Of a stretch of 64,000 nt of DNA, positions 48,593 through 53,982 are shown piece by piece. The translations under genes and the position numbers were made by a program. Source of the stretch: Shigella phage SSP1; sequence record KY963424, one strand, 5' to 3'. Every line of letters starts with the position of its first letter. Positions within the stretch are counted from its first letter, which is position 1. The notes below the pieces were generated by a model that worked only from the letters and a program-made list of their open reading frames with translations, did no database searches and had not been told where the DNA came from.

Positions 48593-49089
48593 AACAATAC
48601 TCCTGTATTGATTAATCGAAATCTTTTCTTTAGGACTATTCAGAAAGAATAGAACAACTATTACTACTATTTACGTAAACATCAATTATCATCAAACAAT
48701 ATGAATAAGTTATCATATCTCAGTGCTGTGCTCTCTTCGCTCATATACAGAATAGAACCTAGGTCATTGGCCGCTAAGCCGATTCTATTTGTCCTCACTA
48801 TCCTATTGGTAGGTGACTACTGTACGTGCCGCCATTCGCTGCTCTTTTCGTTCGCACCCCCATATAAAGCTCTGCCTATATAACGAGCTAAATATGCACG
48901 GTTTGGATTTACCTTTCCGAATTCAGGGTACACAGATCACTTAATTGAAGATTAACTAATGCAATATAAACACTAGTAATAGTTAAAACAACCCTTAATG
49001 GGGCAGCCTAACTGTTCCGTATCGCGGATTGTAAACAAGAAAAATTAGCAAAATCAATTTTTACTAATGTCTCTCAATTCAATATAAAT

Positions 49090-49118
49090 ATTATATCAAG
49101 ATTTTGGGCATCCTGCAA
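49090..49118 (-). promoter_or_regulatory. sigma70 promoter about 500 nt upstream of the large replication protein gene
   Basis: - strand: TTGCAG - 17 bp - TATAAT followed by ATTTATATTGAATTGAGAGA, like other early promoter leaders. Confidence 0.5.
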
Positions 49119-49212
49119 GTAAAATTTTCCGGATGGTGCTATCATTGGTCTTGAGTACGGGTAAAACCGAGCCAAAATGACTCGGTAATCAGAGTTCAGC
49201 CAATAAAAATCA

Positions 49213-49602
49213 TTAGTCATTTAATCCCGGAACATAGATCCCAACACGGTTTAATTGTTCTTTAGCTTCTTTGAGAATATCTGGAGTGTACTCCCAAATA
49301 TCATCTTCCACCTGTAAAAGATGGGGCGAACAACCGTCATCCGGCACACGGCATATGGCCAAACCACGTGGGTGGAACAAAGAGAAATTTAGGGCAACAA
49401 TTAAACCCATAGCAGACAATTCATTCCAATCCAATTCCCATTCCCCCGCGTAGCCGGATAGGAAAACACCAACACAGGGATCATCTATTTGCTGCTCCGG
49501 AAAAGTGAAGGAGGCTTGTCTTACCCCCAACCAACGTTGTAGCAGCTTCTCCGCACGTTTCACCAAACTAGGATCAATCTGACGCCAATATACTTGTTCC
49601 AT
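49213..49602 (-). CDS. Hypothetical protein, paralog 1 of tandem pair
   Basis: 129 aa; shares collinear motifs with the adjacent 142-aa ORF (IDD.PC.G ... W.EL..MGL..ALN..LF.P ... Y.P ... G...PGL). Confidence 0.5.
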   Translation of the reverse strand: MEQVYWRQIDPSLVKRAEKLLQRWLGVRQASFTFPEQQIDDPCVGVFLSGYAGEWELDWNELSAMGLIVALNFSLFHPRGLAICRVPDDGCSPHLLQVEDDIWEYTPDILKEAKEQLNRVGIYVPGLND

Positions 49603-49611
49603 TGTGCCCCC

Positions 49612-50040
49612 TTAGGCAGTTAAACCTGGGATCATATACCCGAAACGTCGAAGTTTCTGAATCCCCTCATTTACTTCTTCCGGTGAGTAAGACCAACCAT
49701 AACGTTCATTAACCTGAAAACCAGGAGATTCACTAGTTTTATAGTTAACAACGAGGCGATGCTTAGCAGGCATAAACAGCTTATAGTTTAACGCAAAAAC
49801 TAAGCCCATTTCATCTAACTCTTTCCAGCCGACAATCTCTTCAAGACCCTCCTCTACCTGAACAATTAAACCAATACAGGGAGCCTCATCAATATCATCT
49901 TTAAAAGCAAAGGAGATTTCGTTATTCTCACACCATATTTTCAAAGAGTTAATAGCCTCATTATACAGGCTAGCTGGGAGAGTACGCCAAAAGTTAACCA
50001 AAATTGGATTAGCTTCTTTAGAGAATACATTATTGAACAT
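49612..50040 (-). CDS. Hypothetical protein, paralog 2 of tandem pair
   Basis: 142 aa; see paralog 1. Confidence 0.5.
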   Translation of the reverse strand: MFNNVFSKEANPILVNFWRTLPASLYNEAINSLKIWCENNEISFAFKDDIDEAPCIGLIVQVEEGLEEIVGWKELDEMGLVFALNYKLFMPAKHRLVVNYKTSESPGFQVNERYGWSYSPEEVNEGIQKLRRFGYMIPGLTA

Positions 50041-50042
50041 AT

Positions 50043-50555
50043 TTACACCTTAAATTGTTGTAGGGCTTTACACATTTCAAGATCTGGACTAAATTCTAAC
50101 ATATAGCTAACAGCTCTTAAATCTTGAAGATTTATCCCAGTTCTACCATTGACTATAACTGTTGGATACTGATACATCATAGCACCGGCATCATCCAGCA
50201 CACACCAATGTTTGAGCCTATGCTTTTCAACGAAGCGAAGAACAGAATTACCCCTAGATAATCCACCCCCAGTAAAATCCGTTGTACCAAGAAAACGATC
50301 GATAAGGCCTAATCCGGTCATAATCTGAACGTTCTCCATCTCATTTCTGACAGAGAACCAAGATGATACTCCAACAATCATTATCGGAGAAGGACGAATA
50401 AAGTCCTGAAAAGCCTTGAGAAGCGGTTTGAAAACCCAGTCACTTCCAAAGAAAATCTTTTCATCATCAGGTGCATGATGGTGGGAGATGCTCGAATTGA
50501 GCACCCCATCAATGTCTAGAAAAATAATTGGAATATTACTTATTTCCTGACACAT
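50043..50555 (-). CDS. HAD-superfamily phosphatase (nucleotidase-like)
   Basis: 170 aa; HAD motif I FLDIDGVLN, motif II-like VGVSSW, motif III/IV K ... VLDDAG. Confidence 0.6.
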   Translation of the reverse strand: MCQEISNIPIIFLDIDGVLNSSISHHHAPDDEKIFFGSDWVFKPLLKAFQDFIRPSPIMIVGVSSWFSVRNEMENVQIMTGLGLIDRFLGTTDFTGGGLSRGNSVLRFVEKHRLKHWCVLDDAGAMMYQYPTVIVNGRTGINLQDLRAVSYMLEFSPDLEMCKALQQFKV

Positions 50556-51351
50556 AAGGTCTACCCCCTAAATGAGCTTCTACACGAGCAATAAAATCAG
50601 TATCACTGAAAGCATCTACCGCACCTTTACTCCAGTAAGGGATACCGCGTTCTTCCAGCTGGTACATCTCACTACGAGTCATACCTTGATAGCTCGGTTC
50701 CGCCGCTAGTACACTATCATAGTAGTTAACAACCATAAGTTTCGCAGCAGTCAAATTAAGAACAGGAAATAATTCCCAATAGAAGTTAATTACTTGGTTA
50801 GAGCAACCAACCACAATGATCATATCTTGACTAGTAATACCATCAAAAACATTATACATTTCTGCATACGCTGGAGCATGCTCCCCAAAGAAGACTACAT
50901 TAGGTTTAACCCATTTATAATCATCTGGGTCAATAGAATTGTATCCTACATCAATAATCCGTTTATTGCTACTATTGTAGCTATCAGCTACAACAACCTC
51001 TTTTAAATATCCGTGAATGTGCAGAATGTCACTATGTGGAACGCCAGCACGCTCAATAAGGTCATCAACGTTGGTAGTCAAGTTTACTACTTGACCTGGG
51101 TATTGTTTATACCATTCACCAATACGCAAATGCGCAAGATTGGGTTCAACAGTTTTTAGCTCTTCACGACGCTTGTTGTAAAACATATGGGTTTTATGGT
51201 AAAAATTACCACGAAAGGCATGAATATTACACACTTCTTCTAGATCATAATCATCCCACAATGCTTTACCACTAGCAGTATCAGTACGAAAAGCTCGTAC
51301 ACCACTTTCAACACTCAAACCTGCACCGCTAATAATAATTAACCTACGCAC
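50536..51351 (-). CDS. SIR2-family (sirtuin-like) NAD-binding protein lacking the zinc ribbon
   Basis: 271 aa; ISGAGLSVESGVRAFR (sirtuin GAGIS.ESGIP.FR), TTNVDDLIERAG ... HIHG (TQNID.L ... HG), NVVFFGE, IIVVGCSNQV (VVGTS-like); no CxxC pairs. Confidence 0.7.
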   Translation of the reverse strand: MRRLIIISGAGLSVESGVRAFRTDTASGKALWDDYDLEEVCNIHAFRGNFYHKTHMFYNKRREELKTVEPNLAHLRIGEWYKQYPGQVVNLTTNVDDLIERAGVPHSDILHIHGYLKEVVVADSYNSSNKRIIDVGYNSIDPDDYKWVKPNVVFFGEHAPAYAEMYNVFDGITSQDMIIVVGCSNQVINFYWELFPVLNLTAAKLMVVNYYDSVLAAEPSYQGMTRSEMYQLEERGIPYWSKGAVDAFSDTDFIARVEAHLGGRPYVSGNK

Positions 51352-51545
51352 TATACGATTCCTCGCTTAAATCCTTCGATAATATTTCGGAGTAAAATTG
51401 CTTCCTCCGGGCGTACCTTTTCTTGCTTAATAAGCATATCCAATCCAGCAATACAACTAGCTACACCAGCATTATAACCAGAGTTCCATTGCTCAATAAG
51501 CATGTTTTCTAGATTACTTTTTAGACTCTGATTCAAGAAGTCCAT
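51351..51545 (-). CDS. Hypothetical small protein
   Basis: 64-aa ORF. Confidence 0.3.
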   Translation of the reverse strand: MDFLNQSLKSNLENMLIEQWNSGYNAGVASCIAGLDMLIKQEKVRPEEAILLRNIIEGFKRGIV

Positions 51546-51717
51546 AAAGTTTCTCCTCTAGTTCCATAACACGATTTTCATAAGAAGCACGCAACTTTTC
51601 AATTGCCAGCGCACGCACTGTAACCTCATTAGAATTAATAGCTAACTGGGCCAGGTCTTCTGTTTCCATACGTCCGTTGTAAATTAAGCGATATTTAAGA
51701 TGTTTTACGTTTTTCAT
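51514..51717 (-). CDS. Hypothetical small protein
   Basis: 67-aa ORF. Confidence 0.3.
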   Translation of the reverse strand: MKNVKHLKYRLIYNGRMETEDLAQLAINSNEVTVRALAIEKLRASYENRVMELEEKLYGLLESESKK

Positions 51718-51726
51718 TCTTGTTCC

Positions 51727-52008
51727 TTAGTTCTGTACTGTAAACTCATTCTTATCACAGTGAGCATAATAATACCCATACATACGATAAATTTTCACAG
51801 CCTTAGTAGACCCCTTCGATTCTTCATAATCAATCCAGAGCCACTTGTCTTTACCTACATAATGTACCCGAAACTTCTTAACTTTCTTATCATTCCATGT
51901 TGCAACAACACGACGATAATCAAATCCACCCAACCAATCTAGAGCCTTACGTTCTTCACTAGGCTCTCCAAGATGGGAGACATCTACTTTAGGAAGCAAC
52001 TCGCTCAT
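51727..52008 (-). CDS. Hypothetical protein
   Basis: 93-aa ORF with GAGGAG SD, directly downstream of an early promoter. Confidence 0.45.
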   Translation of the reverse strand: MSELLPKVDVSHLGEPSEERKALDWLGGFDYRRVVATWNDKKVKKFRVHYVGKDKWLWIDYEESKGSTKAVKIYRMYGYYYAHCDKNEFTVQN

Positions 52009-52036
52009 AGCTTTCTCCTCTCAAATTTATAAATCA

Positions 52037-52065
52037 ATTATACATAAATTTTTGGCTGAAAGCAA
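52037..52065 (-). promoter_or_regulatory. sigma70 early promoter
   Basis: - strand: TTATTTGCTTTCAGCC ... TTGCTT - 17 bp - TATAAT, then GAGAGGAG SD. Confidence 0.65.
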
Positions 52066-52066
52066 A

Positions 52067-52100
52067 TAAAATAAAAGCCAGGTCGACTAGCAACCCGGCT
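52067..52100 (-). terminator. Rho-independent terminator after nrdD
   Basis: - strand: 8-bp stem (AGCCGGGT/ACCTGGCT, one G-U pair) with 9-nt loop followed by TTTTATTTT. Confidence 0.55.
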
Positions 52101-52107
52101 GATTAGC

Positions 52108-53982
52108 TTATTTAGCTCGAATATCCTGATGTTTCACTCTGCCCATAACCTCGTGCTGTTTGCCGGGGTTAAATGGACGAGCACCCGGATTTCCAAGATA
52201 CCCACAAACTCGACGAGTTACCTCAAGAGTTTCGGGGTCATGATTACCACAGATAGGGCACTTAAATCCATCTTCGGATGCTATTGTTTCACCTAAGAAT
52301 CCACATTTACCGCAAGAATCCACTGGAGTATTAATACCGAAGTAATGAACTTTACTAGCAGCATAATTAATAACCCATTCCAGTGCATCTGGGAATCGTT
52401 TCATATCTGGTAGTTCTACATAGGAAATGCACCCACCAGAAGCAATCGGAGTGAAATTAGATTCATAATCAAATTTCACGTTAGGAGCAACTTTACGTTC
52501 TACATCAAGGTGGTGAGAGTTAGTGTAGTATCCTTTGGACAGAATATCTTCATGCTCCGGGAAATATTCGCGGTCTAGACGACAAAAACGGTCACATAGG
52601 GATTCTGATGGTGTAGCATACAGGCTATAACCTAATTTAGTTTCTTCCTTCTTCTGATCGACTCTATCCCGCATGTACTGCAATACACGCTGAACAAACT
52701 TGATGCAGGTCTCGGACATTGTGTCTACATCTTTGCCAAACATAAACTGTAGCATTTCATGGCAACCAATATACCCTAGAGATACAGAAGCACGGTTATA
52801 GAAATGATCGAATACATACTCATCCGGCTCCAAGCGTAACCCAAAGGCTCCTGACATATAGAGGATGGGTGCAGCTTTAGCTTGAATGTATTTTAAGCGA
52901 TCAACTCTCCACTCCAATGCTTTTAACGCTGTATCCACACGTAGCTCAAGCAAATCAAAGAATAGATCAATATTTCCTTCAGCTTCGATAGCAATTCTAG
53001 GCAAGTTTACAGAAACAACACCTAAGTTATTACGACCGGCAGTTTCACCATCTTCTGTAGCAGCTAGGAATGAACGGCAGCCCATAGAAACTTTATAGTC
53101 ACCAGTAACTTCCACAACCTTATCATAGCTGATATAATCTGGATACATACGTTCAGCAGTACATTTCATAGCTAACTTCTTGATGTCATAATTAACATCT
53201 CCTGGTTTCATATTTACGCCATCACGAAGTACAAATACCAGTTTCGGGAAGATAGCTGTACGTTTATTGATACCTAAACCATCCATGCGTACTTTCAGTA
53301 TTGCTTTCTGTACTAGACGTGCTTCCCAAGAAGTTCCTAGACCAAAACCAAAGGTAATAAATGGACTCTGCCCATTAGAGTTGAACATGGTATTGATTTC
53401 ATATTCTAAACCCTGACAAGCGTCATAGACTTCTTTTTCAGTCATCTCCGTAGCCATTACGGATGCTTTGGCTTCATCCTTAGTCCAACGTTTTGCAAAC
53501 GCATGATTTTTGTCATAGGATTTACGAACATAAGGGGCTAATACTTCATCAAGGCGATCTACAGAAGTACCACCATACTGATGGGAGCTAACCTGAGTGA
53601 TAATCTGAGCAGTAATAGCCGCCGCAGTAGTGATAGAGTTTGGAGTGCTAATTTCAGCATTACCAACCTTCATGCCATTCTTCAACATATCTTCCAGGGC
53701 CACCAGACAACAGTTAGTCATGCCTAATGCAGCATAATCAGCATCATGGAAATGAATATCCCCAATCATATGAGCATTTCGAATCTGAATTGGCATTTCT
53801 TCTAGAATTAGATACTTACTCAACTCACCTGCAAGCATATCCCTTTGTGTAGGGAAACGTTCTGAGGGTTTATTGGCATTATTAAATAGCAGTTCTTCAT
53901 CTGCTGACCCTTCGATAATCTCTTTGCAGTTTCTAATTAACGCCTGCATTTCTTTATACTTTAGTTCTTCATTACGATTCAT
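52108..53982 (-). CDS. nrdD: Anaerobic ribonucleoside-triphosphate reductase (class III RNR)
   Basis: 624 aa; C-terminal glycyl-radical motif RVCGYLG, zinc-ribbon cysteines (CGKCGF ... CPICG); GAAGGAGGG SD. Confidence 0.9.
   Translation of the reverse strand: MNRNEELKYKEMQALIRNCKEIIEGSADEELLFNNANKPSERFPTQRDMLAGELSKYLILEEMPIQIRNAHMIGDIHFHDADYAALGMTNCCLVALEDMLKNGMKVGNAEISTPNSITTAAAITAQIITQVSSHQYGGTSVDRLDEVLAPYVRKSYDKNHAFAKRWTKDEAKASVMATEMTEKEVYDACQGLEYEINTMFNSNGQSPFITFGFGLGTSWEARLVQKAILKVRMDGLGINKRTAIFPKLVFVLRDGVNMKPGDVNYDIKKLAMKCTAERMYPDYISYDKVVEVTGDYKVSMGCRSFLAATEDGETAGRNNLGVVSVNLPRIAIEAEGNIDLFFDLLELRVDTALKALEWRVDRLKYIQAKAAPILYMSGAFGLRLEPDEYVFDHFYNRASVSLGYIGCHEMLQFMFGKDVDTMSETCIKFVQRVLQYMRDRVDQKKEETKLGYSLYATPSESLCDRFCRLDREYFPEHEDILSKGYYTNSHHLDVERKVAPNVKFDYESNFTPIASGGCISYVELPDMKRFPDALEWVINYAASKVHYFGINTPVDSCGKCGFLGETIASEDGFKCPICGNHDPETLEVTRRVCGYLGNPGARPFNPGKQHEVMGRVKHQDIRAK

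Follow-up and report, generated by a model that had tools for sequence, protein, structure and literature searches.

Known relatives and the SSP1 locus

The closest described counterparts of the genes considered here lie in phage T5, where the Sir2-like gene T5.102, the HAD gene T5.105 and the genes T5.106 and T5.107 are followed by T5.108, which encodes the replication-origin-binding protein; the BF23 record shows an identical layout at this locus. The products of T5.106 and T5.107 belong to a catalogued family, DUF7415 in Pfam (PF24187) and PHROG 2502, and this family carries no assigned function. The present report concerns the corresponding gene pair of Shigella phage SSP1 (sequence record KY963424), of which a stretch of 64,000 nucleotides (nt), hereafter the window, was analysed. 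The two genes, designated a and b, are located as follows:

49213..49602, minus strand: DUF7415 paralog a, 129 amino acids (aa), T5.107 ortholog; a-type, with the one intact canonical unit
49612..50040, minus strand: DUF7415 paralog b, 142 aa, T5.106 ortholog; b-type, with the canonical residues partly lost

Both proteins are direct members of DUF7415 and PHROG 2502 and show no difference of substance from T5.106 and T5.107. Since the family, of unassigned function, is already catalogued and the T5 orthologs have long been annotated, the finding counts as already known, and two DUF members in tandem are an ordinary observation. Furthermore, because DUF7415 is without an assigned function, membership in it explains nothing mechanistically. 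What is new here is the internal-repeat architecture of the two proteins, the asymmetric decay of a canonical site and the associations of the family with nucleotide metabolism.

The region from 48600 to 52100 shares 93-97% nucleotide identity with T5-like phages, with 531 matching phage records and Salmonella phage SP01 as the top match. The a and b proteins are 90-98% identical to their orthologs in T5-like phages, whose genes occupy the identical slot, flanked by the HAD gene on one side and the origin-binding-protein gene on the other. T5-like sequences with 88-93% identity to the locus also occur in Enterococcus faecalis contigs and in records titled 'Listeria phage' and 'Campylobacter phage', which probably reflects contamination or mislabelling.

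Paralogy and family membership of a and b

BLASTP aligns a with b over 124 residues with one gap, at 32% identity and 48% positives (E = 7e-21), a value that far exceeds chance and makes the paralogy statistically secure. A sequence-only reading of the window had described tandem paralogs here, joined by the three collinear motifs IDD.PC.G, W.EL..MGL..ALN..LF.P and Y.P...L...G...PGL, and had proposed alignment statistics and structure prediction as checks. Indeed, both minus-strand open reading frames (ORFs) exist, all three motifs are seen in the a/b alignment as well as in an alignment of 15 sequences, the similarity is significant both by the pairwise E value and by the shared matches to DUF7415 and PHROG 2502, and AlphaFold2 gives the two proteins the same order of secondary-structure elements. 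Two points had been missed, namely the DUF7415 membership itself and the internal duplication within each protein. The genes are separated by a spacer of 9 nt that holds an AAGGGGG ribosome-binding site, and a six-frame scan of the whole window with a hidden Markov model (HMM) of the DUF7415 core revealed no third copy.

Against Pfam DUF7415, whose curated gathering threshold is 27 bits, a scores 109.4 bits and b 123 bits, with two matched stretches in each protein. The PHROG 2502 profile, of 134 positions, is matched almost from end to end by a (E = 2.5e-61, positions 4-134) and b (E = 7.2e-63, positions 2-134). Neither protein has a match in NCBIfam or in PADLOC, the latter comprising models of defence-system proteins without anti-defence families, and a Foldseek search of the predicted viral structures in BFVD returned only other DUF7415 proteins.

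Each protein is a tandem of two DUF7415 units

Both a and b are internal tandems of two DUF7415 units of ~55 aa, followed by a C-terminal helix. Four lines of evidence point to this arrangement: the two Pfam stretches in each protein, the scores of the separate halves, all of which exceed the Pfam threshold, the register of the profile-profile alignment, and the repeated order of elements in the AlphaFold2 models. With two units per protein, the locus holds four DUF7415 units in a row:

49264..49434, minus strand: C-terminal canonical unit of a, aa 57-113, DWNELSAMGLIVALNFSLFHPRGLAICRVPDDGCSPHLLQVEDDIWEY; C-terminal half against Pfam E = 2.9e-14, core HMM 81 bits
49441..49596, minus strand: N-terminal unit of a, aa 3-54; best Pfam stretch, onto profile positions 1-53 of 53
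49666..49842, minus strand: C-terminal unit of b, aa 67-125; C-terminal half against Pfam E = 9.3e-15, core HMM 44 bits
49846..49998, minus strand: N-terminal unit of b, aa 15-65; best Pfam stretch, onto profile positions 1-52

The Pfam model spans 53 positions, and its best stretch in full-length a and b is the N-terminal half. When the C-terminal halves were searched alone, they scored 53.4 bits (a) and 55 bits (b). Plain BLAST of half against half did not detect the internal repeat, returning an overlap artefact only. At the profile level, hhalign placed 29 N-terminal units in register with 51 canonical units (E = 0.011), with the Trp, the helix, the following strand and the x-G-x strand in correspondence. 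The AlphaFold2 models, for which the predicted local distance difference test (pLDDT) and the predicted template modelling score (pTM) are 92 and 0.85 for a and 88 and 0.83 for b, show a strand-helix-strand-strand order that is repeated and then followed by the C-terminal helix. The T5-type proteins terminate in a conserved tail, G-x-x-[IV]-P-G-L.

Other members of the family are built differently. The single-unit proteins of PHROGs 3954, 33705 and 1812, found in T4-like, P2-like and other phages and prophages, consist of one ~58-aa unit that is sometimes fused to other domains, whereas the T5-type proteins combine two units, a C-terminal helix and a tail, and occur as a diverged pair. The second unit of a nevertheless shares all near-invariant residues with these single-unit relatives.

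A canonical signature, intact in a and decayed in b

From 136 extracted family cores, which also served to build the core HMM, we derived a canonical signature for the ~58-aa unit: [IV]-[DN]-W-N-x-x-S-x-x-G-L-x-x-x-I-N-x-E-[IV]-L-H-P-x-G-L-A-x-x-R-x-x-x-x-G-x-S-...-D-G-x-W-x-Y. Conservation among these cores is 100% for N, 99% for G, 99% for S, 96% for H and 78% for R, and W and Y are conserved too. The C-terminal unit of a contains every near-invariant residue and is ~50% identical to the family consensus. The C-terminal unit of b retains the W, G-L, N, P, S and W-x-Y elements, but the family His is replaced by Met and the Arg by Asn, and the difference is reflected in the core HMM scores given above. 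Nearly all signature residues are gone from the N-terminal units of both proteins, and that of a keeps only the Trp and the fold pattern. By its sequence, b looks like a copy that has degenerated at the canonical site. Both proteins are acidic, with isoelectric points (pI) of 4.57 (a) and 4.75 (b) and a family core median of 4.66.

Selection and age of the duplication

Ratios of non-synonymous to synonymous substitution rates (dN/dS) were computed pairwise for 28-29 distinct T5-like sequences per gene. The medians are 0.12 for a and 0.08 for b, next to 0.07 for the HAD gene and 0.10 for the Sir2-like gene, and both paralogs are thus under purifying selection. The Klebsiella T5-like phage Roth39 has the two gene types in the order seen here, b before a, which places the duplication before the T5-like phages of Klebsiella diverged from those of Escherichia/Salmonella. 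In a rough, unbootstrapped neighbour-joining tree, the two-unit proteins form one clade of a-type and another of b-type. Hence, the suggestion made from the letters of the window, an old duplication maintained by selection, agrees with the substitution ratios of about 0.1, the Roth39 gene order and the tree. Not every relative keeps the pair: Pectobacterium phage My1 has one a-type gene, and Serratia phage Slocum has one gene in which a canonical unit is joined to a b-like tail, a combination that also occurs in a single-copy form recovered by the profile search described below (P0048).

Distribution and domain fusions of the family

When 1.84 billion representative proteins were searched with a profile, 154 clusters reached E <= 0.001, most of them matching the second unit only. 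Giant repeat proteins among them (P0054, P0088, P0117, P0173 and others) were set aside as spurious, their repeated matches all falling in the 'G-W-x-Y-(S/T)' tail region. Of 50,697 deposited phage genomes, roughly 900 carry DUF7415, which also occurs in many prophages; its spread over virulent and temperate phages of Gammaproteobacteria is patchy, and the core is 45-60% identical between unrelated phage families.

Most members are standalone proteins of 60-110 aa. Among the multi-domain relatives, the unit is fused to a thymidylate kinase (P0089), to a PF04447 dATP/dGTP pyrophosphohydrolase (P0129, P0132) and to a DUF3850/ASCH domain (P0083, P0171 and Yersinia phage YpM_50). When ten multi-domain relatives were compared with PHROGs, the additional parts, the thymidylate kinase excepted, matched only families of 'unknown function'.

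Gene neighbourhoods in other phages

In T5-like phages, the a/b operon lies directly downstream of nrdD, within an nrdA/phoH/nrdD block. The SSP1 gene is placed accordingly:

52108-53982, minus strand: nrdD, class III ribonucleotide reductase

A tblastn search with two phage NrdG proteins found no NrdG activase in the 64-kb window, though NrdD is encoded there.

Elsewhere, the family occurs in several separate phage lineages. In two T4-like genera it is placed between nrdD and nrdG: the 77-aa DUF7415 gene of Jiaodavirus (Klebsiella) overlaps both, and the 131-aa member of Gualtarvirus MP1 (Morganella) begins on the nrdD stop codon, ahead of nrdG. In Aeromonas phage Aeh1, a single-unit gene closes the order td-HAD-nrdA.1-denA-rnlA-DUF7415. 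RB43/GAP161-like phages carry the gene downstream of NudE with one gene in between, in the dNMP kinase/57A/57B region. In P2-like phages it directly follows replication gene A, often beside a Dam methylase, with ogr and packaging genes close by. At three loci, a single-unit DUF7415 gene overlaps the upstream stop codon, that of nrdD in Jiaodavirus (L030, 3974-4207) and in MP1 (L161, 3456-3851) and that of rnlA in Aeh1 (L163, 4001-4234); such overlap with nrdD or rnlA suggests translational coupling.

Metagenomic loci were retrieved from IMG/VR by a degenerate DNA pattern and dereplicated to 20 contexts, in which 111 neighbour proteins were scanned. Other metagenomic contexts were uninformative or had a Nudix gene or topoisomerase II genes nearby. 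In one 155-kb IMG/VR phage, the genes after DUF7415 encode first a weak Macro-like protein (Pfam E = 0.0076, below the cut-off) and then a RyR-domain protein (E = 1.4e-13; L103, 736-1314 and 1333-1830). Together with the Sir2 and NudE neighbours in other phages, this Macro-like neighbour hints at an ADP-ribose theme.

A putative binding or regulatory module of nucleotide metabolism

The reading we favour, with a probability of roughly 0.35, is that DUF7415 is a binding or regulatory module of nucleotide metabolism, of which a would be the intact copy and b a degenerate partner. In this proposal, the unit would be an acidic, non-catalytic module acting early in infection in nucleotide or DNA-precursor metabolism, where it would bind a nucleotide-type ligand or dock on a conserved partner protein. 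Each of a and b would represent a covalent pseudo-dimer of a small alpha/beta unit (strand-helix-strand-strand), completed by the C-terminal helix and the tail, and the lone ~58-aa unit of other phages presumably homodimerises. Following an ancient tandem duplication, a would have kept one intact canonical site and b would have lost the conserved His and Arg; the two probably act together, b serving as a structural or regulatory pseudo-subunit. Families of half-size beta-alpha-beta units that exist either singly, as dimers, or as tandem fusions include the ferredoxin-like regulatory domains and the tautomerase superfamily, and they offer an analogy to DUF7415.

Several observations lead us to infer non-catalytic binding, cooperation between a and b and a metabolic setting. 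The sharp conservation of polar and aromatic residues in the signature is suggestive of a specific binding site, and the coexistence of single-unit and two-unit architectures suggests a dimeric or pseudo-dimeric module. No catalytic family was recognised for a or b in Pfam, NCBIfam or PADLOC, and this, together with the appendage-like place that the unit has in fused proteins, speaks for binding or regulation without catalysis. Finally, the adjacency to such genes in several unrelated phage lineages and the three unrelated fusions to nucleotide-handling domains point to a setting in early replication or the supply of nucleotide precursors.

Other observations weigh against this proposal. The neighbourhoods are heterogeneous: by raw counts, the commonest neighbours in the IMG/VR contexts are DNA methyltransferases (six of the 111 proteins, in three families), followed by terminase and portal genes, and ribonucleotide reductase, Nudix and gpA were seen once each. 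Because genes of nucleotide metabolism abound in the early regions of large phages, adjacency to them may be circumstantial. The conserved N, H, S and D residues could equally mark a catalytic site, and the literature library that was searched yielded no papers on DUF7415, PF24187, its PHROG identifiers or T5.102, T5.105, T5.106 and T5.107.

A bolder form of the proposal, which we regard as rather unlikely, would make DUF7415 an unrecognised small ligand-binding fold with which phages sense or sequester a nucleotide or an NAD derivative, be it a deoxynucleoside triphosphate (dNTP), ADP-ribose or a second messenger of immunity. The fold would function alone as a dimer, in the T5-type pair of pseudo-dimers, or attached to Tmk, MazZ-like and ASCH enzymes as their regulator, and would couple the signal to the class III ribonucleotide reductase and the dNTP supply.

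Operon organisation and flanking elements

In SSP1, seven minus-strand genes run from 52008 down to 49213, in the order 93-aa, 67-aa and 64-aa ORFs, Sir2, HAD, b and a, and they overlap or are 2-9 nt apart. The features around a and b are:

49162..49186, minus strand: intrinsic-terminator-like hairpin ending the operon; 9-bp stem ACCGAGUCA/UGGCUCGGU, then UUUU
50043..50555, minus strand: HAD-family phosphatase, 170 aa, HAD_SAK_2, T5.105 ortholog, immediately upstream of b; Pfam PF18143 E = 7.5e-20, DxDGV motif
50536..51351, minus strand: Sir2-like protein, 271 aa, T5.102 ortholog; Pfam SIR2 E = 2.5e-25, PHROG 2162
51351..52008, minus strand: three small ORFs (64, 67 and 93 aa) opening the operon; PHROGs of unknown function
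52076..52100, minus strand: terminator-like hairpin after nrdD, the upstream operon boundary; T5 annotation

An 86-nt stretch that contains the distal hairpin has a minimum free energy of -20.4 kcal/mol (z = -2.7), and the T5 and BF23 records carry predicted promoters and terminators at positions equivalent to the operon boundaries. The sequence-only reading had placed a and b in one transcript with the HAD and Sir2-like genes. Co-transcription of the four is well supported, if inferred, by the tight packing, the flanking hairpins and the T5 and BF23 annotations.

A further terminator-like hairpin (49510-49528, minus strand) lies inside the coding sequence of a; with five hairpin calls in the region against a shuffle expectation of 2.4 ± 1.7, it is probably a chance occurrence. 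No tRNA genes were found in the window, and no Rfam matches between 48400 and 52300. The Sir2-like protein (50536-51351) has GAGxS and HG motifs. By its sequence, the stretch from the catalytic His to VFFGE is free of cysteines, so that the protein lacks the Zn-ribbon of classical sirtuin deacetylases, and its activity may be other than deacetylation.

Beyond a lies a 620-nt non-coding gap (48593-49212) that separates it from a gene for a 929-aa origin-binding/helicase protein. Within this gap, positions 49000-49099 are 98% conserved over 28 T5-like loci, compared with 91-92% for the flanking genes. A sigma-70-like site at 49057..49028 on the minus strand coincides with a promoter annotated in T5 and would give a leader of ~430 nt before the gene. 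The conserved stretch could be more than a promoter, for example an origin-related or regulatory RNA element.

Alternative explanations

We rank the explanations for a and b in the order nucleotide-metabolism module, binder of a host factor or immune signal, partner of Sir2 and HAD, and small enzyme. The second of these, a tentative candidate that we consider less probable than the first, holds that a and b are host-takeover or anti-defence proteins which neutralise a conserved host protein or an immune signal as an inhibitor or 'sponge', the duplication providing two specificities. The acidic pI values and small size of the proteins would suit such a role, as would their place in an early operon, the patchy spread over virulent and temperate phages, the position of the P2-like gene at the variable right end, with ogr and the cos site close by, the fusions to variable modules of unknown function, and the NAD- or ADP-ribose-handling neighbours in some lineages (Sir2, NudE and the weak Macro-like protein). 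PADLOC yielded no match, however, and core identity of 45-60% with dN/dS near 0.1 would be unusual for an arms race, although it would be compatible with a sponge or with binding to a conserved target. The fusions to Tmk and to the dNTP pyrophosphohydrolase and the apparent translational coupling to nrdD point instead to metabolism. No sequence similarity to the sponges Tad1, Tad2 and Acb2 or to small anti-CRISPRs such as AcrIC4 was seen, nor any structural similarity that reached significance. Fewer grounds for belief attach to a small enzyme of a new kind, a distinctly improbable explanation in which the invariant Asn and Ser and the near-invariant His, Arg and Asp would build an active site where the halves of a dimer meet, with a as the catalytic subunit and b as a pseudoenzyme. 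The polar residues do have a catalytic-looking pattern, they are exactly the ones missing from b and from both N-terminal units, and the family is associated with nucleotide-processing enzymes; yet the 58-aa unit has no match to any known catalytic fold, and its placement in fusions, as an addition to complete enzymes, is typical of regulatory or docking domains. Names in public records on some orthologs, the only support for an exonuclease (ACLAME 70), a tail tube protein or the anti-CBASS protein Acb1, are already contradicted and in all probability wrong: no nuclease, tail-tube or 2H-phosphoesterase family was matched in Pfam, NCBIfam, PHROGs or PADLOC, and a and b lie in an early region of replication and nucleotide metabolism. 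The label 'Phage exonuclease (ACLAME 70)' was rejected for want of any matching nuclease domain or catalytic motif, and the Acb1 label, borne by one single-unit homolog in Klebsiella phage Roth27, because no 2H-phosphoesterase family was matched, this fold and its HxT/S motifs being required. In RB43-like phages, the homolog of gp57B is encoded by a gene of its own, which is annotated 'RNA ligase' and lies 3 kb from DUF7415; T4 gp57B is known as Acb1.

The interpretation given by the sequence-only reading stood in part. Its idea that a and b may share a functional module with the Sir2-like and HAD genes would, as an explanation, have the four genes work in one pathway, for instance in the processing of NAD+/ADP-ribose or the repair of RNA ends, where a and b would present substrates or act as regulatory subunits; we consider it doubtful. 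Its strength lies in the tightly packed operon and in the linkage of Sir2 with DUF7415, which is universal in the four T5-like (Demerecviridae) lineages examined, the two genes abutting in Slocum. Furthermore, the HAD protein is of the 'Swiss Army Knife RNA repair' type, and Aeh1p322 is a HAD homolog (34% identity, E = 9e-21) located four genes upstream of DUF7415 and next to RNA ligase 1, which represents one independent recurrence. Outside the T5-like phages, however, no Sir2 gene was found near DUF7415 in about 80 loci, and the ~1000 phage records with Sir2 homologs include many in groups (rV5-like, Phapecoctavirus) for which the DUF7415 searches listed no match. The HAD gene, like nrdD, is variably present across the Demerecviridae lineages: its homologs occur in 497 records, hardly any of them from Klebsiella phages, yet 318-325 Klebsiella phage records match DUF7415, and both the Klebsiella T5-like phages and Slocum keep DUF7415 without HAD. 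In Morganella phage MP1, a distance of 23 kb separates the HAD gene from the DUF7415 gene. A literature search on T5 and Sir2 returned nothing relevant. The link to Sir2 and HAD is for the most part inherited synteny, found mainly in T5-like phages, and a functional module of a and b with these two proteins is possible but not established.

Significance for T5-like phages

T5-like phages serve both as models and as therapeutic phages, and T5.106 and T5.107 are conserved, selected early genes of theirs without an assigned function. Given its sharp signature and the recurring links with nrdD/nrdG, td, Tmk and dNTP pyrophosphohydrolase, DUF7415 is a reasonable candidate for an accessory factor of phage nucleotide metabolism and, less likely, for a counter-defence binder.

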